Assembly (NCBI GenBank): GCA_046329385.1
Contig: JAXLUT010000007.1
Location: 20,640-84,639 of the forward strand
Direction: 5' to 3'
Origin: Saprospiraceae bacterium
Lineage (GTDB): Bacteria; Bacteroidota; Bacteroidia; Chitinophagales; Saprospiraceae
DNA: 64,000 nucleotides
The notes beneath the pieces were generated by a model that saw nothing but the letters and a program-made list of their open reading frames with translations, was not told where the DNA came from and made no database searches. Position numbers and translations under genes: made by a program. This document shows positions 8,279 through 56,635 of the stretch, piece by piece; positions within the stretch are counted from its first letter, which is position 1; the number at the start of each line of letters is the position of its first letter.

Positions 8279-8301
8279 ACCAAAAGTATCACGATATCGA
8301 A

Positions 8302-8337
8302 AAGCCTTGTTCTGTGTTGGGACAAGGCTTTTTCTTT
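8302..8337. terminator. hairpin terminator between convergent genes
   Basis: aagccttgt(N11)acaaggctt followed by a T-run. The reverse strand also has a short T-run, so it may end the cytochrome operon too. Confidence 0.6.
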
Positions 8338-8357: not shown

Positions 8358-9143
8358 CTACAATGATGTGGCCTCTTCCATGATGATATCGTATCTATAC
8401 CCGGCACCAAAATCTTTATTGAGTGCAATTTTACCTCTGAGCACTACTTTACTACCGATAGGTATGTTTTGATTGGTCGTAACTGTGAGGTCGATAGCCT
8501 TACCGTTTGATTGGCTACCATCATGAATGTGTACCCAATTGCGCCCCATGATGCCATTGTTGACTTTGACGCATTCTCCAGCAATAGTGATGATTTGGCC
8601 GTCGTATTTTGATTTTTTAGCCATCAGATCAGATAGTTTTACGGCATCTTTTACTTGTATAGGTGCAGACGAAACAGGCTTTTCTTGTGTAACTTCTGAT
8701 GGCATACTACCGCTAATATTTCCACCAGGATGCGCAGATGCGTCAATGATATTGCTGACAAGATAAATAGTATCAAATGTCCTTTTGAATTCAATACTCT
8801 CAAAATTTGTTTTCATCAGGCCACCTCTATAGAGATAAGTTTGACCTTTGACAGCATCTGTTTTTGAGGTAGCAATCCAGAATTTTTTGCCTGCTTCAGT
8901 TACGTTCAGATAGGTGTATCTGTCTGTTTGCAGGATTTCATTAGCTGTTACTTGGTGTACATCTGCTGCTCCAGCCATGCCACCTGGCTTATTTCCCATT
9001 GGGTTGGTACTATTTGGTGCTGTAACAGGTATAGCAGAGTTGTTAGTGGGTGATTCGTCAGCTACTATCACTTTTGGTTTTGATTCGCAACCAAATAAAA
9101 TATGTAAAGCAATGATGCTGAAAAGTACATTTTTTATAAACAT
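8358..9143 (-). CDS. lipoprotein of unknown function, last gene of the cytochrome operon
   Basis: Signal plus lipobox (ALHILFGC). 7-nt gap from the upstream barrel gene. No CxxCH. Confidence 0.6.
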   Translation of the reverse strand: MFIKNVLFSIIALHILFGCESKPKVIVADESPTNNSAIPVTAPNSTNPMGNKPGGMAGAADVHQVTANEILQTDRYTYLNVTEAGKKFWIATSKTDAVKGQTYLYRGGLMKTNFESIEFKRTFDTIYLVSNIIDASAHPGGNISGSMPSEVTQEKPVSSAPIQVKDAVKLSDLMAKKSKYDGQIITIAGECVKVNNGIMGRNWVHIHDGSQSNGKAIDLTVTTNQNIPIGSKVVLRGKIALNKDFGAGYRYDIIMEEATSL

Positions 9144-9150
9144 GTCAAAC

Positions 9151-10767
9151 TTAATTTTTAATTCTTTGTGTAACGGTTACAAAGTAACGATGCCAAGCTT
9201 TAGTTGGTTCAAATGTGCCTTCATAACTGCACATCAATGTCGTTTTTTTCAATACATTGATGGTGAAGTTGATGCCAGCTATTTTCTGTTTTAAAGCTGA
9301 TTCACTATTGAAGAAGTTATAGTTAATTTGTCGATAATTGATTTCGGTGCTCAATTTGCCCTTAAAAAATGAATCGTTGATTCTCCCACCTATAATATTT
9401 CCCGTAAAAGTATATGACTCCAACTGGTTGTAATTCAATGACAAATTGGTTGATTTCCTTGCTATGCTCGAAATACTTAAATTGACTATATGGTTTTTTG
9501 TTGGTTTTGGTATGCTGCCTTGGTATCGGTAGAACGATGATACATTTATATTGATCCGCCTGAATGGGCTATAATTGGCCTGTAATCTGAAACCTTGTCT
9601 TGTTTCTTGGGCCAATAATTGCTCGATAAATGTTTGGTAAGATTCGTAATAAATAATATTGCGCCTATTATCATAAGAGCCAGATACTGAGAGATTGCGC
9701 CTTAGTCTATATCTGAGCGATGCATAGACGCTTGTCAATCTTGGCTTATTGTCTGTTTCGCCATTTACTTTTTTGAAGAGATCAAACTCAGTAGAAAAGA
9801 AAATATTTAGATTTTTTACTATTGAATTATTATGCTGAAAATACAGAAACCGTCTATCTGTTTTGAAGTCATTTTGCTGCTCAACGATTGCCAAAGATGT
9901 TTGAGCTAATCCTTTGGTTGTTTTATCAGATCTTACCAAATACAATCCTACTTGAGGTAGCCCTGCATTGAATGTGAAATTGGTAAAATCTGGCCTTGTT
10001 CCTAAAATGCCACCAATGGTATATTTACCAATAATGTACTCACCTTGTAGTCCATCTATGGCGCCAATATTAGCAATGTTTTGGTTCATACGTCTTCCTA
10101 ATGAAATATTGAGTCTGTCAGATGGCGAATATGTCATAGCCAACGATAGCACCTTAAAATCATTATAGAAATTGTAATTCGTCTGATCAATACCATACCG
10201 GCGGCGATAGGTCAAATAAGTTTGAATTGAAAATGCTGATTCGTTGATGTTTTGTACATTTAGACTCACAGCAGCCCTAATTCTTTGAAAATTGTTTTGC
10301 TGGTCAGGATTGATACTGGCATTGGTTGATAAAGTGAGTCTTCCAGTTGTGATAGACTTTCTGGATTTTGTTATTGGGATGGAATCTTTGCCGAGGGTAT
10401 CCAATGTCACATTTGTTTTAATTTCTTCGATGGGAAGGGAGATAACTGGCTCCAGAGTCTTTAGAACTTTTTTTGTTACAATTTTTTTAACAGCTTGCCC
10501 AAGATTGATCGTAGTACTTGAGATATTTTGTGTCACACATGAAGTAGTGGATTTCTGTATGACTACCAATGCAGGTACCCAGTTGCTTTGTTCCAAGATA
10601 AGTAAGGTGTCGGTGACATAAATATCACTTGTATTTTCAAATCTGACATAGACATTGGTGCTACTTTTAAAGCTTACATTGCCAAGTATTTCACCTCGTT
10701 CTTGACCAAACAAAAAGCTCGGTGTCAAAATAAAAATTGCCCAAAATATCCTTAATAAATAATTCAT
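9151..10767 (-). CDS. predicted outer-membrane beta-barrel protein (candidate porin partner of the cytochromes)
   Basis: Signal peptide. Long run of alternating-polarity strands rich in Y/R/N/S after a ~110-aa N-terminal domain. 3-nt gap to the cytochrome gene. Confidence 0.6.
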   Translation of the reverse strand: MNYLLRIFWAIFILTPSFLFGQERGEILGNVSFKSSTNVYVRFENTSDIYVTDTLLILEQSNWVPALVVIQKSTTSCVTQNISSTTINLGQAVKKIVTKKVLKTLEPVISLPIEEIKTNVTLDTLGKDSIPITKSRKSITTGRLTLSTNASINPDQQNNFQRIRAAVSLNVQNINESAFSIQTYLTYRRRYGIDQTNYNFYNDFKVLSLAMTYSPSDRLNISLGRRMNQNIANIGAIDGLQGEYIIGKYTIGGILGTRPDFTNFTFNAGLPQVGLYLVRSDKTTKGLAQTSLAIVEQQNDFKTDRRFLYFQHNNSIVKNLNIFFSTEFDLFKKVNGETDNKPRLTSVYASLRYRLRRNLSVSGSYDNRRNIIYYESYQTFIEQLLAQETRQGFRLQANYSPFRRININVSSFYRYQGSIPKPTKNHIVNLSISSIARKSTNLSLNYNQLESYTFTGNIIGGRINDSFFKGKLSTEINYRQINYNFFNSESALKQKIAGINFTINVLKKTTLMCSYEGTFEPTKAWHRYFVTVTQRIKN

Positions 10768-10770
10768 AAA

Positions 10771-13700
10771 TCAATCTTCACCATCTGGATGACAAGCATA
10801 ACAAGCATTGCTATTGTATTGATATCCACCTACACCGTCATGTTTGTCAGCCATGTCAGCAGGATCGTCATGTTCGTGGCAATTTATACAACTAAATAGA
10901 TTGTAATTGCTTGCATTGAAGTGGCAGTCAGCACAAGTATTCCATTCTCCTTGGTGTTTTCCACTATATATTGGGAAATACATGCCATCATGGTTAAAAG
11001 TAGCTGGATTCCAAGCATTTTGAGAGTGACAAGAAGCACAGTCTGTCGGGAATTGTGCAGCTGTATGGTTGGGATTGGTAGTACCATTATAATCGCTTTG
11101 GTGACAACCTACACAAGTATTTGGAGTATTATTGTAATTGCCATTGTGACAAGTCACACATTCTAATGATGTATGGGCACCAACTATTGGATATATACTA
11201 TTGTGGTCTGGGAACAAAGCAGGACTCCATCCAGGTGCTGTAGTATGACAACTCACACAATCGGTAGATATACCTAGTGTGCTGTGATTTGGATTGGTTG
11301 CTCCGTTATAATCTGGTGTATGACAGCCAGCACAAGTGTTGGGTGTATTGGTATAATTGCCCATGTGACATTGGTTACAATCTGCTGCAATGCTACTATG
11401 CGCACCAGTTAATTGATAAAAATTGTTATGATTGAATGACGATGGTGTCCAACTGTTCTGACTATGACAACTTTCGCAATTGGTAGGGAATTGGTTGCTA
11501 CTGTGATTTGGATTAGTAGAGCTATTATAGTCACTCGTATGACATCCGAAGCAAGTGTTTGGAGTATTGTTGTAGTCTCCATTGTGACAAACTACACAAT
11601 TATTGGCAACACTGATATGCGCACCAGCTATCACATAAAAATCATTATGGTTTGGCATCGTAGCTGGTTGCCATCCAGGAGCAGTAGTATGGCAGCTCAT
11701 ACAGTCTGTGGATAGTCCTAAGGCTCCGTGATTCGGATTTTGGGCATTATTGTAGTGCGTCTGATGACAAGAAACACAAGTGGTAGATGTATTGGTATAG
11801 TTGCCGTTGATGTGGCAAAGTGTACAATTATTGGCTATTGCTTGATGTCCACCTGTCAATGGCCAAATAGTATTATGATCAAATGAAGATGGTGTCCAAG
11901 CGTCTTGACTATGACATGTAGTGCAGTTGGTTGGGAATTGATTGACCTCATGGTCTGGGTCATTGGTTGCGTTAAAATCTGATTGATGACAACCAATACA
12001 TGTATTTGGAGTCGTTGAGTAATTGCCATTAATGTGACATTCTGTACAGTTATTGGCGATAGCGGCATGAGCTCCAACCAAAGGATAAACAGTACTGTGG
12101 TCAAATGTTGATGGCGTCCAAGCATCTTGACTATGGCATGTAGCGCATTGATTAGGAAACTGTTGAGTAGTATGATTAGGATTGGTAGTGGCATTGTAGT
12201 CAGACTGGTGGCATCCTACACAAGTGTTGGGCGTATTGTTATAATCACCATTGTGACAAGCTGCACAATCACCAGCTATAGCAATATGTGCGCCGGCAAT
12301 GACATAAAAATCATTGTGATTGGCCATCGTGGCAGGAGACCAACCTGGATTGGTGGTGTGACAAGTGGCACAAGCTGTACTCAGCCCCAAAGTAGTGTGA
12401 TTAGGGTTGATACTTTGATTGTAATCTGTCTGGTGGCAACTGACACATTCTGATGAGGTATTATTGTAATTTCCATTATGACAAACCACACAATTGGTGG
12501 ATATAGCAGAGTGCGCGCCTGTCAAAGGCCAAAAAATACTATGATCAAAATTAGCTGGTGTCCAAGTGTTTTGATTATGGCACGTGGTACAATCAGTAGG
12601 AAACATACCTGCTTCGTGATCTGGATTGGATGTATTATTGAAATCCGATTGATGACAACCGACACATGTGTTTGGAGTATTGGTATAGTTGCATTATGAC
12701 AAGCTGCGCAATCTCCTGCTATGGCAGTGTGTGCGCCAGCTATGACATAGTAATCATTGTGATTGGGCATCATGGCTGGTGCCCATCCAGGTGTGGTAGT
12801 GTGGCATTGTACACAATTATTGGATATACCCAAGGCTATGTGATTTGGATTGACAGCTTGATTGAAGTCAACAGTATGACAATCTACACAGTTAGTAGAT
12901 GTGCCTTGATAACCATTGGCATGACATGATGTACAATCTGCACTGGTGTGTGCGCCCGTCAATGGGAAATTGGTGGTATTGTGATCAAAGATAAAATCTG
13001 CATCGCCTGTAGGATGACATGCCAAACAAGCAGGGCTATTGTAAACATAGCCGCCTACACCGTTATGTTCATTGTCAGTTTGTGGATTGGTATGACAAGT
13101 GATACAAGTAAATTGGCTGTAGTCGGCTGGATTGTTATGGCAATCTTGACATTGTGTCCATTCTCCTTGGTGCTCGCCAGAGTATATAGGGAAATATTGA
13201 TTATCATGGTTGAAAGTGGACGGTTGCCATGCATTTTCGCTATGACAAGAAGCACAGTCGGTTGGAAATTGTAAGGCTATGTGATTCGGGTCAGTGGTGG
13301 CAGTATAATCGCTATTGTGGCAACCTACGCATGTATTTGGCGTATTGTTGTAGTTACCATTATGACAGGCGGCACAATCATTTGCTATGGATGCGTGTGC
13401 GCCATTTAAGGTATAAAATTGATTGTGAATGGTGAATGAAGCTGGTGCCCAACCTGGATTGGTAGTGTGACAAGATGCACAATCCGTAGTCAAATTTAGT
13501 CCAACGTGATTGGGATTGCTTGCTTGATTAAAATCAGTGGTATGGCAACTTACGCAAGCTGAATTGGTATTGGCAAATCCATTGGAATGGCACTGCATAC
13601 AATCTACACCTTGGTGTGCTCCAGTCAATGCAAATCCTGTGGTATTATGGTCGAACACTAAATCGGCATCTCCTGTAGGATGGCAAGCCAAACATGCAGG

Positions 13701-16007
13701 GCTGAAATATGAATAACCACCTACACCATTATGTTGATCATTAGTTTCTGGGTTTTGATGACAAGTAATGCATGTAAACGCGGCCCAATTGCCTGGCGTA
13801 GAGTGGCATTCATTACAATCATTCCAAGTACCTTGATGCTTTCCGCTATATATTGGGAAATATTGCCCATCATGGTTGAATGTGGATGGCGTCCAAGCAT
13901 TTTCAGAGTGACATTGTGCACATTCTTGAGGGAATAGTAATTGTGCATGGTTAGGATTGGTAGTGGCATTATAATCATCGTTGTGGCAACCATTACAAGT
14001 ATTAGGCGTGACATTGTAATTGCCATTATGACAACTGGCACAATCATTGGCAATACTGGCGTGTGCACCATTTAGCGCATAATATGTATTATGATCCGCA
14101 AAGGTGGCAGGACTCCAGCCTGGATCAGTAGTATGACATGATTTACAATCGGTATTGATACCTAATGAAATGTGATTTGGATTGGCTGCACCATTAAATT
14201 CAGTCAAATGACAGCTGGCACAATTGGTAGAAGTACCAGCAAATCCTGTAGCATGGCAACTAATACAATCTGTAGCATTGTGGGCACCAGTCAGTGGAAA
14301 AGCAGTAGTGTTGTGATCAAAAACCACTAATGCATCACCAGTAGGATGGCAAGCCAAGCACGCATTATCTTGATAAATATAGCCGTTTACATCATCGTGT
14401 TCTTCAGAAGTCTCTGGGTCTTTGTGACACGATACACATGTAAACTTAGTAAAATCACCCGCAACTTTGTGACAATCTATACACTGGTCCCATTCGCCTC
14501 TGTGTTTACCGCTATATATTGGGAAATATTGCCCATCGTGGTTAAATGTTGATGGTTGCCAAGCATTTTCGGTATGGCAAGTGGTACAATCATGCGAAAA
14601 CTGATTTTGGACGTGATTTGGGTCATTCGCTGCATTGTAGTCGCTATTATGACATCCAATACAAGTATTGGGTGTATTGTTGTAGTCACCGTTATGACAA
14701 GCTACACAGTTATTGGCAATACTCGCATGAGCGCCATTGAGCATATAATAATCGTTGTGAACAGCAAAAGTTGCAGGACTCCAACCTGGAGCTGTAGTAT
14801 GACAAGATTTGCAATCGTTTGACAGATTAAGTTTTGTATGATTTGGATTTTGTGATCCAGCAAAATCTGATTGATGACAATCCACACAAGCTGTCGATGT
14901 ACCTTGAAAACCATTGGCATGACAAGATACACACTCTACTGTGGTGTGTGCCCCTGTCAATGGAAATTGTGTAGTATTATGGTCAAATGCCATATCTCCA
15001 TCACCTGAAGGGTGGCAAGCCAAACAAGCATTGTCATCATAATGGTAGCCGCTGACGCCATTATGTTCGTCATCTGTTTCCATTTTTTTATGACAAGCTA
15101 TACATGAAAATGTTTTGAAATCTCCTGGATTGGTATGGCATTCCACACAATCTGACCATACACCTTTGTGTTTGCCGCTGTATATTGGGAAATGTTTTGC
15201 ATCATGTTCTTGAAAAGTCACTGGTCTCCATCCTGGAGCCAAAGTATGGCATTGGGCACATTCTGTTGTAAATCCAGCAGCAGCGTGATTTGGTGAGGAT
15301 GTATTGTTGAAATGTGTTTGATGACAACTGATACATTCAGCAGAGATGATAGAAAAATCATCTGATAAATGACAAGCCTTACAATCATCTATCTTATGGC
15401 CTTGCTCCAAAGGGAAGAAGCTATGGTCGATGATTTCAGTATTCCATCCGGACCCATTCAATCCATGGCAAGCAGAACAGTCATTGCTAAAGTTGTTTTT
15501 GACGTGATCTGGTTTTTTGGTGCTGATATAGTCATTTCTATGGCAATCAATACAGTTGACGCCTGTAGGAGAAAATCTTACATTGCTTTCGCTTATATGG
15601 CAATCATTGCAATTGATATTGGCATGTACACCCATCAATGGGAATGAAACCTGCTCATGCAATAGGGTGATATTCTCAACTATCCATGATTGTGGTGTAT
15701 GACACCTTGCGCAGTCTTGCCCTACTGTGAGCTGGTGTACATCTTGATGGCAACCGACGCAAGTAGTGGAGACTTGTTTAAACTCCAATGTCTGATGACA
15801 TGATCTACAATCTAGATCTTTGTGCAGACCAACCAATGGAAAAGATGTACTGTCGTGACTGAAGTTAGATTTTTTTTGTTGGTAAGTCCAATTTTCGGGA
15901 TGATGACATTGTGCACAGTCTATGGCAAAGGATGCTCCATGGGGAGACTGAGACAAAACCCTTCCCCAAAGACATACAAAGAACATCAAACCAATATATT
16001 TGAGCAT
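10771..16007 (-). CDS. giant multiheme c-type cytochrome-like protein, ~1745 aa, ~70 CxxCH motifs, interrupted by a 1-nt frameshift near 12692
   Basis: Track ORFs 12522..16007 (44 CxxCH before the frame is lost) and 10771..12606. Adding one G at 12691/12692 restores ...CAACHNGNYTNTPNTCVGCHQSDFNNTSNPDHEAGMFPTDCTTCHNQN..., giving 26 CxxCH downstream of the break. Sec signal MLKYIGLMFFVCLWGRVLSQ. Confidence 0.8.
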
Positions 16008-16195
16008 ATTTTACAAAAATATGACGCAAGTTATAATAAAAAATTTAAATAGCGTAATTTAATGCTAATTTTTTTAACTTATAATTTAATTTTGAATTAT
16101 GGCGTATTGATGAAATTATATTTTGTAAAATTTGGAATTATTTGTTTTGATTTTCATGGTTTTCCATGAGTATAAGAAGAAAAATATCGATTTGC

Positions 16196-18040
16196 TCACT
16201 GATGACAATCTTTGCAGTCCAATTTTTCATTTCTATATAGGATGGTAGATTTGCCATCTTTGACCTCAGATTGGTGGCACTGGTTGCAGTTGACTTTTTG
16301 GTGCGCTCCTTCGAGTTTGAAGCGCGTGTTGTCATGATTAAAATTGCTCCGATCCCACTTTTCAAAACCGTGACATCTAGCACAATCGGTCTGGCCATCT
16401 TGTTCAAATTGATTGCCATGTATGTTGTCGTGGCAGCTTTGACATTTTTGGTCCAATTGGATAAATTTTTGTGTTTTTGGCGTTGTGGTTTCGTCAAAAT
16501 GGCATGACCTGCAAGATATTGTCTCGTGTTTTCCCTTGAGTGAAAATGCGGTTTGGTTATGGTCAAAAGCTACATGAGTCCATGCATCATTGTTGTGACA
16601 AGCAGCGCAATCTTGGTTAGGTATAAATTTGGTTGAAATAAAACCATCATGTATATTATCATGACAATCAATACATAAAGATCCAATATTTCTAAAATTC
16701 CATTTATTATTATCAGGTTTATGGCAAGCAAAACAAGGTGTAGCAATATGAGCACCTTTGAGCGGAAAATTGGATTTTTCGTGTCGGTTGAAATCAAAAC
16801 TACTTTCCAAAAAACTAGTTTCGTCATGACAAGATTTACAATCATTTTCTACCAATTTTTCAAATTGCCCATCATGATAATCTTTATGGCATGATTTACA
16901 TTGGTCATGAGCCAAAGGAGCCGTCATATAGGTCGAAGTATGGCATTTGCGGCAATCGACTGATTGGTGCTTACCATACAATGTATAACCCGTCAAAGTA
17001 TGATCAAAATCTGATTTGATATTTTTAATGCCAAATGATTGCTGGTTATGACAAGATTTACAATCTTGGCCTAATTTTTTTTCATGGGCATCCTCATGAC
17101 AAGTAAGACAAGTTACATTTTGGGTGTTTTCAAATTCCTTGTATGTATCTTTTGTCCCAGATCTATTATCATGACATTTTTTACAATCAATAGTTTTGTG
17201 TTTGCCTTCCAACTCAAAACCTGTCAAACTATGGTTGAAGGCAGATGTGGACTTCATTTTTGAAAATGACTCGGTACTATGACAAGATTTGCAATCTGTA
17301 CCGAACTCACCATGATGAGGATCTTTGTGGCAAGAGCTGCAATTTTTATGAGGCACATTCGCAAAGTTTTGAAATTCTTTTCCATTTTTAATCTCTGTTT
17401 TATGGCATTGGATACACTGCACATTGGCGTGTGCCCCTGTCAATGGAAATTGGGTTTGGCTATGCTGAAATCCTGTAGCTGGTTTGAACTTGTCAAAATT
17501 ATGACACTTTGCACAATCATTGTCCAAGGTTTTTTGGTGATAGTCATCATGGCATGTGATACAAGTAGGAGATAAGCCAAGATAAGTACCTTTATTTTGT
17601 CTTATTTTTGGATCTGTAATATTATCGGCTGTATGGCACTTAGTACAATCATTGATCTTGTGGCTGCCTTTCAGATCATAACCTGTCAATGAGTGGTTGA
17701 AAGTCTTCTTGTCAAAGCGGATCATTTCAAAATTGACGCCATGGTGCTCGCTATGGCAAGTAATGCAGGCCTTGCCTTTGATCTCTCTGGATGAATGGTA
17801 ACCTTTGTTTTGACTTATTTTTTGTTTGAGTGGCTTGTGGCAATCCAAGCATTTTTGCTCTGATATCTTAGAGCCTAGATCATGACATGCCGTACAATTG
17901 CTGATACCTTCGAGTTGGGTATGCGCCTTGGTCAATTTGCCCGGTGACAATTGACTGAAGCCAACACAAATACATAGCGACCAGCATGTAATGATGGAGA
18001 CCAATTGCTTAATGGATAAACTATGTATAAATGATGCCAA
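16196..18040 (-). CDS. multiheme c-type cytochrome-like protein, 23 CxxCH motifs
   Basis: 614 aa with an N-terminal hydrophobic signal. 23 CxxCH by manual count, about one per 27 aa. Confidence 0.85.
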   Translation of the reverse strand: MASFIHSLSIKQLVSIITCWSLCICVGFSQLSPGKLTKAHTQLEGISNCTACHDLGSKISEQKCLDCHKPLKQKISQNKGYHSSREIKGKACITCHSEHHGVNFEMIRFDKKTFNHSLTGYDLKGSHKINDCTKCHTADNITDPKIRQNKGTYLGLSPTCITCHDDYHQKTLDNDCAKCHNFDKFKPATGFQHSQTQFPLTGAHANVQCIQCHKTEIKNGKEFQNFANVPHKNCSSCHKDPHHGEFGTDCKSCHSTESFSKMKSTSAFNHSLTGFELEGKHKTIDCKKCHDNRSGTKDTYKEFENTQNVTCLTCHEDAHEKKLGQDCKSCHNQQSFGIKNIKSDFDHTLTGYTLYGKHQSVDCRKCHTSTYMTAPLAHDQCKSCHKDYHDGQFEKLVENDCKSCHDETSFLESSFDFNRHEKSNFPLKGAHIATPCFACHKPDNNKWNFRNIGSLCIDCHDNIHDGFISTKFIPNQDCAACHNNDAWTHVAFDHNQTAFSLKGKHETISCRSCHFDETTTPKTQKFIQLDQKCQSCHDNIHGNQFEQDGQTDCARCHGFEKWDRSNFNHDNTRFKLEGAHQKVNCNQCHQSEVKDGKSTILYRNEKLDCKDCHQ

Positions 18041-18045
18041 ATTTC

Positions 18046-19368
18046 TTACTTTTTATGAGATAACATGGTGTAATTGAATCGTTTAGATATTTCAATGCCA
18101 GCTTTTTGTAGAAATTGTGTTGGTAACTCTCCACCAGCAAAAATAAAGACCAAATCATTTTTAAGATGCATCTCAGTGCCATCTTTCAATGCAATAGTGA
18201 CATCATCTTGATTGATCTCTTTGACATTGGATTCAAAAAGCATATTAATTTTATTTTCATTAATGGCTTTTTCTATATTTTGAGCATTAAGCGGTTTTAA
18301 CCTATTGAATGCTTCGCTGCGATATGATAGTGCTACTTTGTTGTCTTTGGCCAATAGCAATGCACTTTCGATGGCTGAATCTCCGCCACCTACCACAAGG
18401 ACATTTTGACCAATAATATGTTCTGGCTCCATGAGTTTGTAAGCTACTTTTTCCAAATGCTCGCCTTTTACATCCAGTTTTCTTGGTGTGCCTCTGCGAC
18501 CTATTGCCAAAAGTACTTTTTCGCCTTGGTAGCTTTCACCTTTTTGTGTAGTCACCACGAATTGACCATCTTGCTTGCTGATAAGTTCTACTTTTGAGTT
18601 TTCGACAATATTGATTTTATTCTTATCTAATACTTCGTGCCAAAGGTCGAGCAATTCGGTTTTACTGGTTTGATATAGCTTCACTTTGCCATGTCCAGGC
18701 AGGTCCATAGGCGATGTCATGACGATCTTGGCTCTAGGAAAATTATATACAGTACCTCCAAGAGTATCTTGCTCCAATGTCAATGTTTTGATGCCCATGT
18801 TTTTGGCTTGGAGAGATGCTGCAATACCAGCAGGACCAGCACCGATGATGATGAGATCATAAGTGGCTTTATGATTTTTGTCCAAAGACTGTGAGATATA
18901 TTGGACTGCTTGTTTGCCTTGTTCTACACTATTTTTAATGAGGCCCATTCCACCCAATTCGCCAGCTATAAAAATGCCTTTGACATTGGTCTCAAAATTT
19001 TGGTTGACATGAGGCAGATCGACGCCACGTTTTTCAGTACCAATCTTTAGAGAAATTGCTTCTACTGGGCAAGCGTGAAAACAAGCACCATGACCTACAC
19101 ATCGGGATGCATTGATGAGCGTGGCTCTTCCATTTCTGATACCTATGATTTCTTTTTCTGGACAAGCTATGACGCATGCTCCACTTTTGATGCAATTATC
19201 TTCGTCAATGTATGGATACAAAGATACGGGTTCGAAGGCTCCAACTTCTTTGGCTACTTGGATTTTTTCGTCCACATCTTTGGATTCTTTTTTGAGTTTA
19301 CGCACATAGATCCACACGATAATGAGACAAATCAAGCTGACAACGCTATATATAATGAGCTCTTCCAT
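18046..19368 (-). CDS. membrane-anchored FeS (2 ferredoxin-like motifs) + FAD/NAD(P)-binding oxidoreductase (thioredoxin-reductase-like fold)
   Basis: N-terminal TM helix followed by RKLKKESK. Motifs CIKSGACVIACP and CVGHGACFHACP. Dinucleotide motifs IIGAGPAG and VVGGGDSA. Confidence 0.85.
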   Translation of the reverse strand: MEELIIYSVVSLICLIIVWIYVRKLKKESKDVDEKIQVAKEVGAFEPVSLYPYIDEDNCIKSGACVIACPEKEIIGIRNGRATLINASRCVGHGACFHACPVEAISLKIGTEKRGVDLPHVNQNFETNVKGIFIAGELGGMGLIKNSVEQGKQAVQYISQSLDKNHKATYDLIIIGAGPAGIAASLQAKNMGIKTLTLEQDTLGGTVYNFPRAKIVMTSPMDLPGHGKVKLYQTSKTELLDLWHEVLDKNKINIVENSKVELISKQDGQFVVTTQKGESYQGEKVLLAIGRRGTPRKLDVKGEHLEKVAYKLMEPEHIIGQNVLVVGGGDSAIESALLLAKDNKVALSYRSEAFNRLKPLNAQNIEKAINENKINMLFESNVKEINQDDVTIALKDGTEMHLKNDLVFIFAGGELPTQFLQKAGIEISKRFNYTMLSHKK

Positions 19369-19374
19369 CAGTGC

Positions 19375-20229
19375 TTAAAATATCCAAGTATAACCAAAAG
19401 TCAATGTCACTGCTACGTGAATGATCATGATGATGAGCATGATCAGAGCAAAAGGCAAGTGAGCAATGTGCCAATACCTAAATAATTTTTGCATAGTGAG
19501 CAGTCTTTGTATTTTCCGATTGAGATTCAGCTCATTGGAGATATTGAGCATGATAGATTTCATCTCTGATGATGGAATATTTTGTGTATTCAATCTACTT
19601 CGAATGATTCGCAATTGTTTCTTTTCATCAAGATATTGTGAAATGTATCCACTAAAACCCTTATAGTCTTGAGTGGATTTTGTAGATTCGATCAATCCAT
19701 GTATATCCACATTGGAGTATTGTTGTTGATCGACACTTGCATCTTTTGCTGACATTGCTTGCAATTCAACTAAGCTGAGTTCTCGGCCTTGGATGGTGCG
19801 TGGTATTTGAAGATAAATGAATCGACCTATCACGCCACTCGCCACTACTGCGACCATACTCCAAAAACTGATGGAAACGATGCCACCGAATTTGAAAGCT
19901 GTATGAAATAAGATCATGATGGGGCCCAAAGTACACAGAAAAATGTGAAATTCGAGCCAGTATTTCAACACACCAATCCTACTAAGCGAACGGAATCTTT
20001 TTCTTGCCATATAACCAAACACGCCTATCAAGATAAGCAAAGTGCCGATGATGCCTAATCCATGGCCATACATACCACTAGGTTTTAGGTTTTGATGGTC
20101 TTGATGATAAAAACGCTCCTCAAGTGAAGTAACATAATAATCTGAACCATGTAGTGCTAAATAAATAGTAACACCAACTACTATGGAAGCCAAGGTGGCA
20201 AGATAGATCTTATGGCCTGTCTCGGTCAT
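19375..20229 (-). CDS. polytopic membrane protein with two H-x13-H pairs (candidate di-heme b transmembrane electron carrier)
   Basis: Likely start MTETGHKIY at 20229, preceded by a TAnnTTTG box. About five TM helices. EFHIFLCTLGPIMILFH and HLPFALIMLIIMIIH lie within hydrophobic segments. Confidence 0.6.
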   Translation of the reverse strand: MTETGHKIYLATLASIVVGVTIYLALHGSDYYVTSLEERFYHQDHQNLKPSGMYGHGLGIIGTLLILIGVFGYMARKRFRSLSRIGVLKYWLEFHIFLCTLGPIMILFHTAFKFGGIVSISFWSMVAVVASGVIGRFIYLQIPRTIQGRELSLVELQAMSAKDASVDQQQYSNVDIHGLIESTKSTQDYKGFSGYISQYLDEKKQLRIIRSRLNTQNIPSSEMKSIMLNISNELNLNRKIQRLLTMQKLFRYWHIAHLPFALIMLIIMIIHVAVTLTFGYTWIF

Positions 20230-20251
20230 GGATGATGAGGTTATTCTTTTG

Positions 20252-20259
20252 CAAAGGTA
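20252..20259 (-). promoter_or_regulatory. -7 box TACCTTTG for the cytochrome operon
   Basis: TAnnTTTG on the minus strand, 22 nt upstream of the ATG at 20229. Confidence 0.3.
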
Positions 20260-21151: not shown

Positions 21152-21868
21152 ATGGAATTGAATAATGTCGAAATATTATTAGTTGATGACGAAGCAATAC
21201 ATACTGAGATACTCAAGAAAAAACTACAAAATTTAGGATACATAAATGTAAGCGTTGTCAATTCATTTTTAAAGGCTGTCGATTACCTCAATGAAGTTAA
21301 CCCAGATTTAATCATCTTGGATTATTATTTGGACAAGAACCATACAGGAGTGGATTTAGTCAAAGAGTCTTTATTGAATAAAGAAATACCAATTATATTT
21401 ATTAGTTCTTTCTATGGTAACGACTTGTTTAAAGAAGTCATTGGATGTGCCCCCATTGATTTTGTACCTAAAAACGTTTCCGAGTTTGATTTAGATAAGA
21501 CCATTAGATTATCTTTGATCAAAAGGAAGGAAGCAAATATAAATAAGAAATTGAAGGATTTTATTTTTGTAAAATATAAGAGGGAGATAAGGAAATTAGC
21601 TGTTATCGATATTGAATATATGGTTGTAGATGGTAAATATTTGGTTTTGCATGCAGATCAAAAAAAATATCTGATTAGATCTACCCTCAATGACTTTTTA
21701 AAAAAATTACCTGAAAACTTTATTAAAGTACATCAAGCTTATATTATCAATCTTAGGTTTTTAGAATCAATCCAGTTGGATGAAGGCATTTTGAAAATCG
21801 GGACTGTTGATATCCCATTTAGTAGGAATTATAAAAAGGACTTGCTCAATGCATACTATATGCCATGA
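21152..21868 (+). CDS. LytTR-family response regulator
   Basis: REC domain (ILLVDDE, IILDYYL) plus C-terminal LytTR DNA-binding domain (FIKVHQAYIINL). TGA stop. Confidence 0.9.
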   Translation: MELNNVEILLVDDEAIHTEILKKKLQNLGYINVSVVNSFLKAVDYLNEVNPDLIILDYYLDKNHTGVDLVKESLLNKEIPIIFISSFYGNDLFKEVIGCAPIDFVPKNVSEFDLDKTIRLSLIKRKEANINKKLKDFIFVKYKREIRKLAVIDIEYMVVDGKYLVLHADQKKYLIRSTLNDFLKKLPENFIKVHQAYIINLRFLESIQLDEGILKIGTVDIPFSRNYKKDLLNAYYMP

Positions 21869-22387: not shown

Positions 22388-25300
22388 CTAATTTTGTTTT
22401 GATTTGAGGTCATTCACAACATTTTGTAAGCTTAAAATTATTTTATCAATAGCTTTTATAGATGTATCCGAAAATGGAATGGACGCATCAAGTTCTACTA
22501 AAAGATGACATCATCATAAATATTGTAATTCCCATCTGAAGGCAATAATTTTAGCTTTTAATTTATGGGCAATTTTTTTGACTGTATCTACATCATTATT
22601 TTTTTTGGCGCGCTCCAATTCTGGAATATTTTCGTCACAAAGAGCTATGAAAAGCTCAATGATTTTATTGACAAAGACTTCGTCTCCTCTACTTATTTTT
22701 TTAATTTGACTCAGATCGTATAGCTTATGCATACTGTTCATATCATCTATGTTGTTCCTATTCGTATAATTACTAATATTGATCTGAATTTTTCTGAAAA
22801 ATTCTTGCTCGTCATAGGTTTGATGATGTGAAGTCATTCATACCTATGCTTTAGGTATAATTTTATGTCATGCTTGAATGCATTGGCAGTTAAGGCAATG
22901 ATAGGTATGTCCAACTTGAGTTGTTCTCTGATATATATTTCGTTGCCTCAACACCATCCATTGTAGGCATTTGAATATCCATCAAGATGATGTCAAAATT
23001 ATTTTTTTGAACTTCTTCGACTGCGATTTTTCCATTTTCTGCCTCTCTTGTTTCAAACCCAAGATAGTTCAAACTCTGTATAGCAATAAATCTATTCATT
23101 TCATTGTCTTCGACCAACAAAGCTCTCATCCCTTGAAAACATTTGCTTTAATTTCTGCACTTTTGGGATGTAATTGTGTAGCTTTTGATTTTGTAAACAT
23201 AAGCTCAAAAATGCAAGTTGTCCCTTCATTTTTCTTGCTTTTTATTAACATTTTGCCACCCATCAGTTTGATCAAATCATGAGAAATGGCCATACCTAAT
23301 CCGGTACCTTCAAATTTCTTTTATTGATGTGTTTTTTTGTTTCTTGAGAAAATCTTATCGTACCTGTGATAAATTCCTTTGACATACCGATACCAGTATC
23401 TGAAACTTCAAATCTCAAGGTTTACTAAATTTACCTTGCATCAAGGTAGCCGATAACTCGATATGGCCAAATTGAGTAACTTCATAGAATTTCCAATAAG
23501 ACGATATTTACTTGACGCAAATGTATATCATCACCTATTAATACGAATGGATGTTTGCATCAATATGGATATTAAATTCAAGATTTTTTCGATAGCTGAG
23601 AAGATGATGGAGTAAATATTATTGAGTAGAGTACTTGGACTAAAATTATTTTTCAAAATCTCCATATCTCCAGATTCAATTTTTGCAATATCTAAGACAT
23701 TATTGAGGATGGTCAAAAGATGCCTTGCCGAGCTTTCTGACTGTTTGACATAAAACTGTTGGGGCTCAGTTAGTGCTTCTTTATTGAGCTGCCTTATCAT
23801 GCCTATGATGACATTCAATGGTGTCCTTATCTCATGGCTCATATTGGCCAAAAACAATTCTTTCGCTTTTGCTACTGCTTCGGCAAAGCTCTTAGCTTCA
23901 GCCAGTTCTATTTCTAATCTTTTTTGTGCTGTGATGTCCAAGTGAATGCCAATGCTGCCTATCAATTGGCCTTTGTCGTTATAGTTGGGTGCGCCACTTA
24001 CAAACCACCATCTTTTTTCTCCAGTCTTATTAATTACTTCCAATTCATAACTATCTGACATACCATCGATTCTTATTTGTGTTTTGTCATAGACAATTTT
24101 TTTGTGATGGTCTTGGACAAAAAGTTCAGCTGCTTTGCTATCTTTTAATTCAAAAAGACTGAAGCCTGACATCTCACAAAAACTTTGGTTGGCAAAAATA
24201 ATCACATCATTCAAATCTACTTCTAAAAGGCCCAAATTCATATTAGCAATAATATTTCTGTATTTTTCTTCTTGTCTAATGAGTTGATTCTCCCATTTTT
24301 GTCTATTTCGGATGTTAATCAACATCTGTCCAAATAACATTAAAAGACTTTTTTCTTTATTAGTATATATTTTGTGGTCTTTTACTGAATCGAAACCAAC
24401 GAAGCCAACAAGTTCTTTACCATCTATCATCGGGATAGCTATCAAACTTTTGATACCTTGTGCTTCCAATGCTTCTTGTACTCCATCTTCTTTCTCTACT
24501 TCACTTAATTTCGAAACATCTTCAATATGAAAAGATTCTCCTAATAGGTGTTGCTTTACCCAATATTCTGGTATTGGAACATTTTGCAAATTGTCGATTT
24601 CAGCTGATATTCCATCACCACACCACTCATAGGTATTTGAAGTTGTGTTGGCTTCAAAATCATAATCAAAAATATAAGCTCTGTCTGCACCAACAAACAT
24701 ACCCATTTTCTCAAGTGATTCGGCTATGGTCTTTTCTAATTCTTGGATGTCAAGATTGATATATGTGGTAGCTACATCGATCAATGCAGCTTGAAGCTTG
24801 ATCTCATTGTCAAGTTTCTCTTGTGCAAAATATTGTCGAGTTCGATCCACCAAAACACCATCAATCCTTATAGGTTTATTATCTTCATTATAAATATATT
24901 TTCCTTTATTTTTTAACCATTTTAGTCGCCCTGATGCAGTATTAATCTTAAAGCGAACATTGAATTCTCCCTTTTGATCCAATTTTTGAAATATTTCTCT
25001 TACTACATTCTTATCTGACTCAATAATGGGCGCAATCCAAGCTAGTTTATCTTGCAATACTTGCTCTACACTTAGTTCATAGACTGTGTTGACTGATGGT
25101 GTTATAAAAATAAATTGTTTTTCGGGCAACTTTATAGAATAAACCACGTCTGTCATCTCATTGAGGATACTTTCAAGCATTTGAGTAGTAGAGATCAATT
25201 TTTTTTCTTGAGCTTTTCTTTCACTTATATCTTTGATAAATGCACAAAAAAACTGTTTGTCTTTTTGAAAAAAATTCATCATGTAGATTTCTACTGGAAA

Positions 25301-26323: not shown

Positions 26324-26375
26324 TGTGTGCACTGCCTCCCTATAAACTGGACTTTTTTCAAATGGCGTAAATTTG

Positions 26376-54166: not shown

Positions 54167-54167
54167 G

Positions 54168-54421: not shown

Positions 54422-56635
<2,214 letters not shown>

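Follow-up and report, generated by a model that had tools for sequence, protein, structure and literature searches.

A conserved six-gene cluster of a Saprospiraceae bacterium as a candidate PCC3-type trans-envelope electron conduit with a cytoplasmic input enzyme

Computational analysis of a 64,000-nt stretch of a Saprospiraceae bacterium genome (contig JAXLUT010000007.1, positions 20,640 to 84,639; referred to as the window) revealed a real and widely conserved six-gene cluster, which we regard with moderate confidence as a PCC3-type trans-envelope electron conduit plus a cytoplasmic input enzyme. PCC3 is a predicted gene cluster defined by He, Barco, Emerson and Roden in 2017 (Front Microbiol 8:1584; PMC5566968). 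Judged from the encoded proteins, it looks as though approximately 93 hemes would carry electrons from the cytoplasm across both membranes. A sequence-only reading of the window had proposed a porin-cytochrome conduit with a flavoprotein/FeS and histidine-pair input module. The computational checks were favorable to this idea, but the giant multiheme cytochrome (MHC) gene proved to be frameshifted and the gene combination was not as undescribed as assumed. The features of the locus are listed in Table 1.

Table 1. Coordinates of the genes and regulatory candidates of the cluster within the window.
Feature	Position	Strand	Remark
TACCTTTG box, Bacteroidota-type -7 promoter	20252-20259	-	23 nt 5' of the IMP gene ATG
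Inner membrane protein (IMP) gene	19375-20229	-	intact ORF, ATG start; frame stays open to a TTG at 20388
FeS flavoprotein gene	18046-19368	-	intact ORF
23-heme cytochrome (cyt23) gene	16196-18040	-	intact ORF, TTG start
AT-rich spacer, 188 nt	16008-16195	-	separates the cyt23 and giant cytochrome genes
Giant multiheme cytochrome gene	10771-16007	-	broken by a 1-nt deletion at 12693
Outer-membrane barrel gene	9151-10767	-	intact ORF
Lipoprotein gene	8358-9143	-	intact ORF
Hairpin, 16 bp	8299-8333	none	flanked by the lipoprotein and PPIase genes, which converge on it

Five of the six minus-strand genes proposed by the sequence-only reading are intact ORFs, whereas the span assigned to the giant cytochrome is not a single ORF. 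The gaps between the genes were measured as 6, 5, 188, 3 and 7 nt, in agreement with the reported spacing of 3-7 nt plus one gap of 188 nt. A promoter box ahead of the block had been predicted and was located, but TACCTTTG-type motifs are common in the window (142 observed versus 90 expected) and often lie close 5' of genes, so that this lone copy argues only weakly for a promoter role. Within the 188-nt spacer a TATTTTTG box is found at 16014-16021, directly 5' of the giant cytochrome ATG; at many of the orthologous loci the two cytochrome genes have overlapping open frames and no spacer of this kind. The hairpin expected 3' of the block was found with a 16-bp stem and is likely a bidirectional terminator. 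A tblastn search of the window with a CcsBA protein detected no cytochrome c maturation gene, as previously stated.

Synteny comparison verified that the six genes have stayed together as one block across Bacteroidota. An MHC gene is located directly 5' of the barrel gene in all 72 related loci, and the lipoprotein gene lies 3' of the barrel gene in 66 of 71. The trio of IMP, flavoprotein and cyt23 genes was found 5' of the MHC-barrel pair at 33 of 47 barrel loci; at seven it would lie beyond the flank examined and at seven no trio was present nearby. Cultured organisms with the cluster include Emticicia (plasmid-borne), Flectobacillus, Lacihabitans and Sunxiuqinia, and homologous clusters are carried by Prolixibacter and Prolixibacteraceae MAGs (L063, L079). 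The cluster also occurs with differing gene orders in organisms of 59-70% GC, and across organisms of 39-70% GC the flavoprotein, the IMP, two MHCs and a barrel of approximately 530 aa are grouped in three gene orders. The flavoprotein gene adjoins the IMP gene or shares its cluster in all examined loci with an IMP gene and complete neighbors. A ccsBA gene is present in 44 of 80 loci, and in Emticicia, Lacihabitans and Flectobacillus it lies directly 5' of the IMP gene. In one genome with a split cluster, the flavoprotein and IMP genes stay beside cyt23, and ccsBA stays with the barrel module. Domain and family searches found no NapC/NrfH-, NrfD-, ImcH- or CbcL-type protein in the block, which upholds the earlier reading.

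The IMP (284 aa) contains five TM helices and a cytoplasmic helical insert of approximately 100 aa, and an AF2 model was generated. Two WX3HX13H motifs (W91/H95/H109 in TM3 and W253/H257/H271 in TM5) supply His pairs that are 14 residues apart at matching membrane depths, and TM4 bears an SGXXG motif (S131-G135). H109, H257 and H271 show no variation across 41 diverse homologs and H95 almost none, and the equivalents of all four His are invariant in a more distant set; no Cys pair is among the invariant residues, which comprise His, Gly, Trp and Ser. Family searches with the 41 members yielded weak matches to DUF4405 (26 of 41), Ferric_reduct (15 of 41, below threshold) and Ni_hydr_CYTB (9 of 41), consistent with the previously described His-pair membrane protein, and no quinone-site motif could be identified. 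As neither a structural match for the model nor a sequence match for the profile was found in the PDB, it is the motifs that predict heme b binding and a role as a di-heme b transmembrane electron carrier.

The flavoprotein (440 aa) starts with a TM helix followed by a basic RKLKK stretch, which puts its body on the cytoplasmic side. It combines a ferredoxin-like domain (C59x5C65x3C69P and C90xxH93xxC96xH98xC100P) with a YpdA/TrxR-like FAD and NAD(P)H domain that keeps the GGGDSA and SYR motifs. Pfam matches are Pyr_redox_3 (1.7e-50) and Fer4 families, and the nearest solved structures are YpdA/Bdr (7a7b), thioredoxin reductases and TrxR-type Fd-NADP reductases. Cys14 of YpdA is absent (GAGPAG instead), and neither a CxxC motif nor a redox-active cysteine pair is found in the protein. 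Conserved Cys residues are confined to the FeS motifs in 36 orthologs, and the motifs are kept in these orthologs and in clusters from the 39-70% GC organisms. These features hint that NAD(P)H may feed the entry of electrons; we infer the electron link from cytoplasmic NAD(P)H to this protein, which was found stated nowhere in the literature searched.

The cyt23 protein (614 aa) was confirmed to contain a Sec signal peptide and 23 CxxCH motifs, and nearly all orthologs keep 23 hemes. With 29 His outside CxxCH, 26.7 aa per heme and a triheme-like motif spacing, it is predicted to be a periplasm-spanning wire; no relative of solved structure was found by sequence search. The second cytochrome had been described as a secreted protein with approximately 70 CxxCH motifs, which holds once its gene is repaired. 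The 5237 nt of the gene are not divisible by 3 and are split into an upstream ORF (12522-16007; 1161 aa, 44 CxxCH, tail out of frame) and a downstream ORF (10771-12606; 611 aa, 25 CxxCH, lacking a signal peptide). The gene is intact in contig L007 (98.5% identity; 1745-aa ORF), and comparison shows that the break is one absent G (CATAAT-GCAAC versus CATAATGGCAAC in L007). Putting it back yields a protein of 1745 aa with a Sec signal, 70 CxxCH, 77 His outside these motifs and 24.9 aa per heme. As there are only 16 Met for 70 hemes, almost all of them are probably bis-His ligated. A motif spacing of 35-15-25 recurs approximately 23 times in the repaired protein and describes c7-like triheme modules. 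Both cytochromes are wire-like, with approximately 25 aa per heme and no fewer than one additional His for every heme, and profile-HMM searches identified them as bona fide cytochrome c7/c3-type arrays, with Cytochrome_C7 as the best Pfam matches. Domain and signal searches detected neither a lipobox nor a T9SS C-terminal domain in either of them. The MHC encoded directly 5' of the barrel holds 13-94 hemes across related loci.

The deletion is present in the sequence as given, and if it were genuine the giant cytochrome would be a pseudogene and the system dead in this genome. Such decay would agree with an adjacent hybrid histidine kinase gene that is split over at least five frames and with IS elements close by. 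However, alaS, an essential gene, likewise carries a frameshift in the window, in a T-run homopolymer, and this suggests indels of the assembly. The other five genes are intact, as is the giant cytochrome gene of L007, and the comparison with L007 gives no sign of decay: 3' of the shift 10 codons differ synonymously and 6 non-synonymously, versus 20 and 10 on its 5' side. A dead system is thus considered unlikely, and the frameshift is most likely an assembly error.

In the barrel protein (538 aa), the signal peptide is followed by a small beta domain at the N terminus (residues 25-97), a disordered linker and a barrel domain (residues 139-537) of approximately 22 strands. Its confident AF2 model (mean pLDDT 82) supports the predicted outer-membrane beta-barrel. 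A relationship to nutrient porins had been named as a possible objection, but no membership in a nutrient-porin family was found. The protein matched no Pfam or NCBIfam family, 674 homologs were found, and the Foldseek structural search returned only generic barrels (TM <= 0.45 normalized to the query). The lipoprotein (261 aa) has the lipobox LFGC, and a conserved SKPKVI stretch comes directly after it. Its first domain is SH3-like (Pfam GW, 29 bits versus a cut-off of 21, matched in 12 of 12 orthologs) and its second is OB-like, with weak OB-fold matches; no heme motif and, by sequence, no PDB relative was found.

The data show which genes, domains and motifs are present, the barrel fold and the co-conservation of the genes; cofactor loading, protein contacts, electron donor, direction of flow, surface exposure and acceptor are inferred, and the path that we propose is as follows. 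The FAD of the flavoprotein would oxidize NAD(P)H, or possibly reduced ferredoxin, and deliver electrons to its two unusual FeS clusters, from which they would enter the two stacked b-hemes of the IMP (H95/H257 on the cytoplasmic and H109/H271 on the periplasmic side). The IMP would reduce the 23-heme periplasmic cytochrome, which would in turn feed the 70-heme cytochrome in or through the 22-strand outer-membrane barrel, a stage to which the SH3/OB lipoprotein may be accessory. Candidates for the extracellular acceptor include Fe(III), Mn(IV) and humics, with O2 as a further possibility. The flavoprotein and the IMP would thereby act as a split NOX/ferric reductase that bypasses the quinone pool. 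By standard potentials, NAD(P)H (approximately -320 mV) can push electrons outward, and electrons from Fe(II) should not be able to reach NAD(P)+ inward against the membrane potential. Since energy would be lost along this path and not conserved, a role in venting electrons or in extracellular reduction would suit the conduit. Against the conduit model stand the seven of 47 barrel loci without a nearby trio, the missing lipobox and T9SS domain of both cytochromes, and the published PCC3 view of inward flow with a quinone-active IMP. The hosts, mostly aerobic heterotrophs that are not known for metal respiration, also speak against it.

Other readings of the cluster were weighed against this model. 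In a quinone-coupled PCC3, electron exchange between the di-heme IMP and the menaquinone pool would resemble that of cytochrome b in bc1 or hydrogenase, and the flavoprotein would not be the direct donor but a partner at the periphery, with an NAD(P)H:quinone or a regulatory role. This agrees with the quinone-active cytochrome b proposed for the PCC3 IMP by He et al. 2017 (PMC5566968), with the quinone-reactive family Ni_hydr_CYTB matched by some IMP members and with a Proteobacteria PCC3 definition that lists no flavoprotein. It is nevertheless judged unlikely, as the flavoprotein is found beside the IMP or in its cluster in all examined IMP loci with complete neighbors and in three gene orders, possesses its own membrane anchor and FeS wire, and no quinone site is identifiable. 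An inward conduit for the uptake of extracellular electrons, e.g. from Fe(II), reduced humics or Fe(0), with the flavoprotein as cytoplasmic sink, appears rather improbable. The PCC3 literature connects the cluster with iron oxidizers, and homologous clusters occur in Prolixibacter, a genus that includes Fe(0)-corroding strains, and in the Prolixibacteraceae MAGs; yet the step from Fe(II) to NAD(P)+ should need energy input and oppose the membrane potential, and the cultured hosts Emticicia, Flectobacillus and Lacihabitans are aerobic organotrophs.

The cytochromes might also serve as a periplasmic store (capacitor) or reductase that never crosses the outer membrane, with the barrel and lipoprotein used for e.g. 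assembly or anchoring. A capacitor was proposed before for giant MHCs of Saprospiraceae and for PCC3, the MHCs bear no recognized surface-export signal, and the variable heme number of the large MHC is expected if capacity matters over geometry. This is considered quite improbable, since the invariant adjacency of MHC and barrel genes, a hallmark of every known porin-cytochrome complex, is hard to square with a purely periplasmic store. Finally, the flavoprotein and IMP could export reductant for apocytochrome CxxCH thiols or heme, similar to TrxR-CcdA/DsbD, and serve the 93 heme sites. The TrxR/YpdA-like fold and the frequent ccsBA genes, directly 5' of the IMP gene in three genera, would fit this role. 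It is at odds with a flavoprotein and an IMP that both lack a suitable Cys pair, with the split cluster in which the two follow cyt23 instead of ccsBA, and with the absence of ccsBA from the window, and is considered highly improbable.

The conduit model shares individual traits with several known systems. MtrCAB, MtoAB and PioAB (Shewanella, Sideroxydans, Rhodopseudomonas) likewise have an MHC gene directly 5' of an outer-membrane barrel gene and follow the logic of a barrel-insulated heme chain across the outer membrane. However, family and structure searches found no homology of the proteins described here to MtrB/PioB or MtrC/OmcA, nor to MtrA/DmsE (33-56 bits versus a cut-off of 192). The MtrCAB-type barrel has 26 strands instead of 22, its cytochromes have 10 and 10 hemes instead of 23 and 70, and its input is a CymA/NapC-type quinol dehydrogenase, which is not the case here. 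NOX, FRE and MsrQ-Fre share the route from NAD(P)H via flavin and two His-paired b-hemes on two TM helices to a trans-side acceptor. In contrast, the dehydrogenase encoded here is a separate polypeptide of TrxR/YpdA instead of FNR fold with two additional FeS clusters, the membrane part has five TM helices and matches Ferric_reduct below threshold in some family members, and the acceptor would be a multiheme cytochrome c. Tmc and Hmc of sulfate reducers resemble the cluster in a periplasmic c3-type MHC, a membrane cytochrome b, a cytoplasmic FeS protein and a quinone-independent inner-membrane link. They differ in that the present cluster has an FeS flavoprotein in place of an HdrD-like CCG protein as its cytoplasmic subunit, NarI/HdrE, NrfD and HmcB-type subunits are absent, HmcA scores far under the cut-off, and an outer-membrane module is attached. 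The Geobacter GSU1996 family ('nanowire_3heme') has the same tandem triheme modules of approximately 75 aa, approximately 25 aa per heme and linear wire shape, but contains four modules versus approximately 23 per chain here, where TIGR04257 stays under the cut-off.

PCC3 occurs in Sideroxydans lithotrophicus ES-1, Leptothrix cholodnii SP-6 and other Proteobacteria (PMC5566968) and was later treated as a functionally unverified EET candidate (PMC10734462; bioRxiv 10.1101/2025.02.27.639646). It comprises a porin with 22 TM strands in L. cholodnii, a periplasmic MHC whose 21-27 hemes take up about 26-27 aa each, a repeat-rich second MHC with 10-85 hemes and a five-TM IMP of approximately 300 aa. 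In this IMP, TM4 bears SGXXG, and TM3 and TM5 carry two WX3HX13H motifs, whose HX13H pairs were remarked to be FRD-like (PMC5566968). Compared by these described features, the 22-strand barrel, the 23-heme MHC, the variable giant MHC and the 5-TM IMP are shared, and the IMP motif signature is identical to that of the PCC3/PCC4 IMP of He et al. 2017. The sequence-only reading, which did not recognize the combination as a described system, therefore does not hold for four of the six components. The cluster analyzed here differs from PCC3 in its occurrence in Bacteroidota and 59-70% GC organisms, in the large MHC gene directly 5' of the barrel gene, in the SH3/OB lipoprotein (in Bacteroidota) and often ccsBA, and in a co-conserved membrane-anchored FeS/FAD/NAD(P)H protein, whereas the published model ties the IMP to quinones and Fe(II) oxidation. 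The new parts are the flavoprotein without redox cysteines, the SH3/OB lipoprotein and the Bacteroidota range.

The tight minus-strand block at 8358-20259 that had been described in the sequence-only reading was confirmed by an ORF listing: five ORFs are intact and closely spaced, and both the upstream box and the downstream hairpin are present. The intergenic gaps measure 6, 5, 188, 3 and 7 nt. A TACCTTTG box is located 23 nt 5' of the first ATG of the block; motifs of this type occur 142 times in the window versus 90 expected and are repeated upstream of many genes, and the single copy before the gene for the inner membrane protein (IMP) provides only poor evidence of a promoter. A candidate internal promoter in the 188-nt spacer was unconvincing, as its box lies just 6 nt from the ATG.

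Genes of the porin-cytochrome block and other features of the window
Feature	Position	Strand	Remarks
Membrane protein (IMP)	19375-20229	-	ORF listing; frame open up to TTG at 20388
FeS flavoprotein	18046-19368	-	ORF listing
Cyt23, cytochrome with 23 CxxCH	16196-18040	-	ORF listing
Giant multiheme cytochrome, first ORF as it stands	12522-16007	-	44 motifs, out-of-frame tail
Giant multiheme cytochrome, second ORF as it stands	10771-12606	-	25 motifs
Barrel candidate	9151-10767	-	ORF listing
Lipoprotein	8358-9143	-	ORF listing
16-bp hairpin	8299-8333		between block and convergent PPIase gene
LytTR response regulator	21152-21868		divergent from conduit operon
Hybrid histidine kinase, broken	22514-26332	-	at least five frames
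rve integrase/transposase	26376-27449	-	
Transposase_31 (YhgA-like)	30937-31872	+	
Two T9SS cargo proteins (Por_Secre_tail, SdrD_B)	37479-39296; 44633-46255	-; +	
tRNA-Leu	50067-50149		
tRNA-Glu	54167-54239		
Catalase-peroxidase (KatG-like)	54422-56617	-	

The giant multiheme cytochrome (MHC) had been read as one ~70-CxxCH gene at 10771-16007, which did not hold for the sequence as it stands. This interval spans 5237 nt, which is no multiple of 3, and contains two ORFs; 70 CxxCH motifs are obtained only after a 1-nt repair. The window could be aligned over 11.9 kb with L007, a contig from another metagenome, at 98.5% identity and with two indels only. One of these is a G missing from the window at 12693 (CATAATGGCAAC in L007, CATAAT-GCAAC in the window). 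L007 encodes the giant MHC as an intact ORF of 1745 aa, and insertion of a G at 12693 results in a window product of 1745 aa with 70 CxxCH motifs. The codon differences between both contigs amount to 10 synonymous and 6 non-synonymous changes downstream of the shift and 20 and 10, respectively, upstream of it. The essential gene alaS (34158-36775, plus strand) is also shifted in frame, near a T-run at 36130-36137: ORF 34158-36185 leaves the frame after '...VRMITFD', the conserved 'RELCGGCHV...GVRRIEAVT' is read in a different frame, and ORF 36284-36775 contains the DHHA1 domain. This observation points to indel errors in the window assembly. The broken cytochrome frame could also mark a real and recent pseudogene, in which case the system would be dead in this genome, but the intact L007 copy, the G repair, the codon differences and the alaS frameshift together make an assembly indel the probable cause.

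Frame breaks were observed in related loci as well. In several MAGs (L019, L021, L032, L074 and L083), the large MHC upstream of the barrel is split into 2-7 overlapping frames; the tig... contig names of these MAGs presumably denote long-read assemblies. Repetitive giant cytochrome genes thus seem prone to frameshift calls, and heme counts derived from MAG gene calls would be underestimated. Elsewhere in the window, a hybrid histidine kinase gene is interrupted over ~1.1 kb, far more densely than the rest of the window, and is either a decaying pseudogene or a badly assembled stretch. Its domains are PAS-PAS-GAF-PAS-HisKA, HATPase pieces, a receiver and possibly an Hpt domain without Pfam match, and it is flanked by the LytTR response regulator and the rve-family transposase genes.

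The IMP (284 aa) contains the motifs W91x3H95x13H109, S131GVIG135 and W253x3H257x13H271. Its family is large, with 2803 cluster representatives (50% identity) at E <= 1e-3. An alignment of 41 diverse members shows no variation at H109, H257 and H271 and almost none at H95 and H254, while S131, G132, G135 and W253 are conserved; the equivalents of H95, H109, H257 and H271 are all invariant in a subset of distant relatives. The positive-inside rule puts H95 and H257 close to the cytoplasmic side of the membrane and H109 and H271 close to its periplasmic side, and the protein is predicted to carry two bis-His sites stacked through the membrane. An AlphaFold2 model (pLDDT 73) features five TM helices and a cytoplasmic helical insert of ~100 residues. 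The window IMP has no Pfam match at a cut-off of 0.01, including Ferric_reduct (PF01794), for which the best match in the family reached E 5.5e-4. Weak Pfam matches among the 41 members were to DUF4405 (26/41), Ferric_reduct (15/41) and Ni_hydr_CYTB (9/41). Neither a Foldseek search of the model against the PDB (best E 0.39) nor a search of PDB sequences with the family profile identified a relative, and the assignment of b-type hemes is therefore drawn from the motifs and the weak Pfam matches.

Profile-HMM searches of the block proteins agreed with the earlier functional assignments, as the cytochromes matched C7/c3-type models and the flavoprotein matched Pyr_redox and Fer4. The flavoprotein consists of an N-terminal TM helix followed by RKLKK, a ferredoxin-like domain and a Pyr_redox_3/2 FAD and NAD(P)H domain. 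The position of RKLKK directly after the TM helix indicates that the remainder of the protein is cytoplasmic, and a twin-arginine motif is absent. The solved structures nearest to it are those of YpdA/Bdr (7a7b; E 2.8e-31 over residues 171-429), thioredoxin reductases and TrxR-type ferredoxin-NADP reductases, with which it shares the FAD/NAD(P)H two-Rossmann fold; its score against TIGR04018 was 182 bits, for a cut-off of 339.9. However, the flavoprotein differs from YpdA in lacking Cys14 (GAGPAG instead of GGGPCG) and from thioredoxin reductases in lacking any CxxC, and its FAD 'GD' segment (residues 120-160) precedes GxGxxG, an order permuted relative to YpdA/TrxR. Across 36 orthologues, GGGDSA and SYR are conserved and the sole conserved cysteines are those of C59x5C65x3C69P and C90xxH93xxC96xH98xC100P. 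As the conserved cysteines are confined to these FeS motifs and redox cysteines are missing, the protein is not considered a disulfide reductase. The FeS motifs contain six cysteines and a conserved histidine instead of the usual eight cysteines; the two missing residues are replaced by a strictly conserved His (CxxHxxCxHxCP) and by Ser/Thr/Gly. This suggests non-standard clusters, either a His-ligated 4Fe-4S or a 3Fe-4S cluster, and the overall make-up would fit an NAD(P)H (or ferredoxin):FeS oxidoreductase.

Both MHCs match the Cytochrome_C7, Cytochrom_c3_2, Cytochrom_CIII and MtrC/MtrF domain II/IV models of Pfam and stay far under the cut-offs of all named NCBIfam cytochrome families, including DmsE/MtrA, OmcA/MtrC, HmcA and GSU2203; a phmmer search of PDB sequences identified no solved relative of either protein. 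The repaired giant MHC contains 70 CxxCH motifs, 77 further His and only 16 Met residues at 24.9 aa per heme. Its motif spacing of 35-15-25 recurs in ~23 repeats, and it is predicted to be a chain of c7-like triheme modules whose hemes are probably all bis-His ligated. Cyt23 (614 aa) has 23 CxxCH motifs and 29 further His residues at 26.7 aa per heme. Nearly all of its orthologues retain a count of 23, and the barrel-adjacent MHC carries 13-94 hemes in relatives. Sec-type signal peptides are present on both MHCs. Unlike T9SS cargo, including other window proteins, the MHCs and the lipoprotein have no C-terminal sorting domain (Por_Secre_tail), and a lipobox was not found on either MHC; export of the MHCs by T9SS or as lipoproteins was therefore considered and rejected. 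The mature N-terminus of cyt23, Q-[LI]-SPG-x-L...H (residue ~31 onward, window ~17950), is kept in organisms of 39%-70% GC (L089, L090, L091), and the [SN]PHG N-terminus of the barrel-adjacent MHC is kept over the same range. These ends may possibly serve for docking to the IMP or the next partner.

The 9151-10767 product had been proposed to be an outer membrane barrel, and its AlphaFold2 model (43 homologues in the alignment) is confident, with a mean pLDDT of 82. A small N-terminal beta domain (residues 25-97) and a disordered linker precede a barrel of ~22 strands (139-537). Identity with an unrelated nutrient porin was not found. Pfam returned zero matches, the best NCBIfam score was at chance level (15 bits versus a cut-off of 332) and a Foldseek search of the PDB yielded generic barrels only (ushers, Occ/OprD porins, AlgE and MOMP; TM <= 0.45, query-normalised), with MtrB absent from the top 50 matches. 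The model thus describes a predicted beta-barrel outside any characterised family and not a recognisable nutrient porin. The lipoprotein has an LFGC lipobox, after which SKPKVI is conserved, and contains an SH3-like domain (Pfam GW, 29 bits; seen in 12/12 orthologues) and an OB-like domain indicated by weak matches only. It has no heme motif, and its family profile detected no solved relative among PDB sequences.

Synteny across Bacteroidota supported the block as a conserved unit. The 674 barrel homologues that were identified belong, where named, nearly all to Saprospiraceae MAGs, joined by Emticicia, Lacihabitans and Haliscomenobacter. Scanning a single genome of each species yielded 218 loci, and 80 of them entered the analysis; these stem from Saprospiraceae, Lewinellaceae, Emticicia, Lacihabitans, Flectobacillus, Aquirufa, Prolixibacter(aceae), Draconibacterium and Marinilabiliales. 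An MHC gene, encoding 19-94 hemes in these loci, is located immediately 5' of the barrel gene in 72/72 loci and the lipoprotein gene 3' of it in 66/71. Upstream sequence of 9.5 kb or more was available for 47 loci; in 33 of these the trio (IMP, flavoprotein, cyt23) is complete and on the same strand, in 7 more it is cut by the flank limit and from 7 it is absent. In one 5.2-Mb Saprospiraceae-like genome, the block is split: the trio (L005/L006, 10001-20858) lies by a Crp-family gene ~3 kb from the N2O reductase accessory genes nosDFYL, and a second module elsewhere (L003, 5000-15578) holds the genes for the giant MHC, barrel and lipoprotein along with ccsBA, which encodes the system II cytochrome c synthase as a ResB-CcsA fusion. 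As the trio stands alone near Crp and nos genes, it may supply periplasmic acceptors as well.

Plasmid pEMTOL02 of the type strain Emticicia oligotrophica DSM 17448 (NC_018749.1, 78197-90781; L088) carries the whole set, where it bears generic annotations only, in the order ccsA, hypothetical, NAD(P)-binding, cyt c3, cyt c3, hypothetical, GW protein. Genes for an ECF sigma factor, a further OM barrel, a Rieske protein, a DUF5777 barrel and a YceI protein adjoin the plasmid-borne set. The GC content of the window block is 0.37-0.43, compared to 0.28-0.35 in its flanks, and IS elements are close by. Horizontal transfer of the cluster is plausible. Distant IMP relatives (30-40% identity) are still found in the same type of cluster, in three gene orders. 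The loci L090 (59% GC) and L091 (Sunxiuqinia, 39% GC) follow the gene order of the window with extra genes inserted, L089 (70% GC) has the order IMP, 209-aa protein, MHC, MHC, barrel, flavoprotein and L092 (67% GC) the order IMP, MHC, MHC, barrel, flavoprotein; a fifth cluster, P0419, starts like L092 with IMP, MHC, MHC, barrel. The GC content of L089 and L092 implies that they cannot be typical Bacteroidota. All four clusters with available DNA (L089-L092) retain the motifs of the IMP as well as the unusual ones of the FeS domain. That the five parts stay together despite rearrangement strongly indicates a joint function.

The idea of a porin-cytochrome conduit fed by the flavoprotein and the IMP was largely borne out by the in silico tests. 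The analysis establishes the gene parts, their motifs, the topology predicted by the positive-inside rule, the predicted barrel fold and the co-conservation. The best-supported reading of the locus is a trans-envelope heme conduit of the predicted porin-cytochrome cluster class PCC3 with a two-protein, NOX-like entry at the inner membrane. We infer the steps, direction and physiological role of the electron path as follows. Electrons would pass from NAD(P)H via FAD to the two FeS clusters, all within the flavoprotein at the cytoplasmic face, and on to the two b-hemes of the IMP. Cyt23 would then accept them and carry them across the periplasm to the large MHC, which would deliver them in or through the barrel to an external acceptor. 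The published PCC3 model offers a different entry: its IMP was likened to a ferric-reductase domain and proposed to be a quinone-active cytochrome b (PMC5566968), and the IMP of the block may be coupled to quinones in the same way. Across phyla and gene orders, the PCC3-type IMP is accompanied by a membrane-anchored FeS/FAD/NAD(P)H enzyme, which provides a testable alternative to the quinone model.

Electron uptake in the inward direction is a rival reading, but the transfer from Fe(II) to NAD(P)+ would cost energy. Outward flow is favoured on these energetic grounds, since NAD(P)H is a strong reductant and outward transfer goes with the membrane potential. As no energy would be conserved at the inner membrane, the outward path suits redox balancing, Fe/Mn acquisition and the reduction of humics or extracellular O2 in aerobic heterotrophs. 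Alternatively, the flavoprotein/IMP pair could serve cytochrome maturation, and ccsBA is indeed present in 44/80 loci; this role is disfavoured and was rejected as the main one, as the pair has no redox cysteines and remains linked to cyt23, not to ccsBA, in the split cluster. A further rival is an electron store confined to the periplasm. Undescribed giant MHCs in Saprospiraceae have been noted, with speculation on a role in extracellular electron transfer (EET) or as a capacitor and no gene context (mSystems 2024, PMC11495043). Returning to the outward conduit, we tentatively propose, at somewhat under an even chance, that the flavoprotein and the five-TM di-heme b protein form an unrecognised split NOX-like, quinone-independent oxidoreductase. 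It would wire NAD(P)H to a heme chain across two membranes, here with a 70-heme single-polypeptide wire, and be the missing entry of PCC3, so that aerobic sludge and freshwater Bacteroidota (Saprospiraceae, Emticicia, Flectobacillus) could reduce extracellular Fe, Mn, humics or O2.

PCC3 is the most widespread porin-cytochrome system known from prediction only. The presence of the system in cultured aerobic isolates such as E. oligotrophica may allow genetics. The system is also found in abundance among wastewater-plant Saprospiraceae, where giant cytochromes had been noticed and so far left unexplained. If the proposal is true, EET would be commoner in ordinary heterotrophs than assumed, and bioelectrochemical engineering would gain a new quinone-independent entry module.

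The barrel has no MtrB/PioB family match, which separates it from MtrCAB, MtoAB and PioAB, and the cytochromes scored 33.8-56.5 bits against MtrA/DmsE (TIGR03508, cut-off 192.2) and 22.7 bits against MtrC/OmcA (TIGR03507, cut-off 209.3). For the Geobacter Pcc/Ext systems, compared through profiles of family-specific cytochromes and porins such as the GSU2203 decaheme and ExtN/ExtO, scores were 31.6 versus 325 bits for NF041028 and ~44 versus 200 bits, over 43 residues only, for NF040967 and NF040968. Tmc/Hmc complexes differ in that no block protein matches CCG or Nitrate_red_gam. With regard to NOX/FRE proteins, whose Ferric_reduct domain has two bis-His heme b sites, the IMP shows the four-His pattern, while the Ferric_reduct matches of its family are weak and the structure search was empty; in contrast to these enzymes, the dehydrogenase is encoded separately and has the Pyr_redox_2/3 (TrxR/YpdA) fold with Fer4, not a fused FNR-type domain.

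The closest system is PCC3, which was defined by comparative genomics (He et al. 2017, PMC5566968). It comprises a porin, an 'extracellular' repeat-rich MHC with 10-85 hemes (median 34), a periplasmic MHC with about 21-27 hemes (median 21) at about 26-27 aa per heme and an IMP of ~300 aa whose five TM helices include WX3HX13H motifs on TM3 and TM5 and SGXXG on TM4; the L. cholodnii representative combines a porin of 22 TM strands with a periplasmic MHC of 24 hemes (27 aa per heme; PMC5566968). The block matches this description in its ~22-strand barrel model adjoining an MHC, the heme number and density of cyt23, the repeats and heme content of the giant MHC and the size, topology and exact SGXXG and two WX3HX13H motifs of the IMP. 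With exact IMP motifs and agreement of the three remaining parts, four of the block's six genes are assigned to a PCC3-type cluster by these published features. The earlier claim of an undescribed gene combination was therefore overstated. PCC3 has been known from Alpha-, Beta- and Gammaproteobacteria (PMC5566968) and was still termed 'functionally unverified' in 2023-2025 (PMC10734462; bioRxiv 10.1101/2025.02.27.639646). Putative novel PCCs in Bacteroidetes were mentioned without detail (He et al. 2019, PMC6344600), and porin-less clusters of MHC, IMP and an 'other redox protein' of 412-425 aa are included in Table S6 of He et al. 2017 (PMC5566968). A flavoprotein-containing cluster or a Bacteroidota version was not described in the literature searched. 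The published PCC3 definition has neither flavoprotein nor lipoprotein, whereas the window cluster has both. What is new here is the co-conserved FeS flavoprotein and the hypothesis of NAD(P)H input that it implies, together with the lipoprotein, the wide range in Bacteroidota, which extends to cultured aerobes and a plasmid, and the predicted 70-heme single-chain wire.
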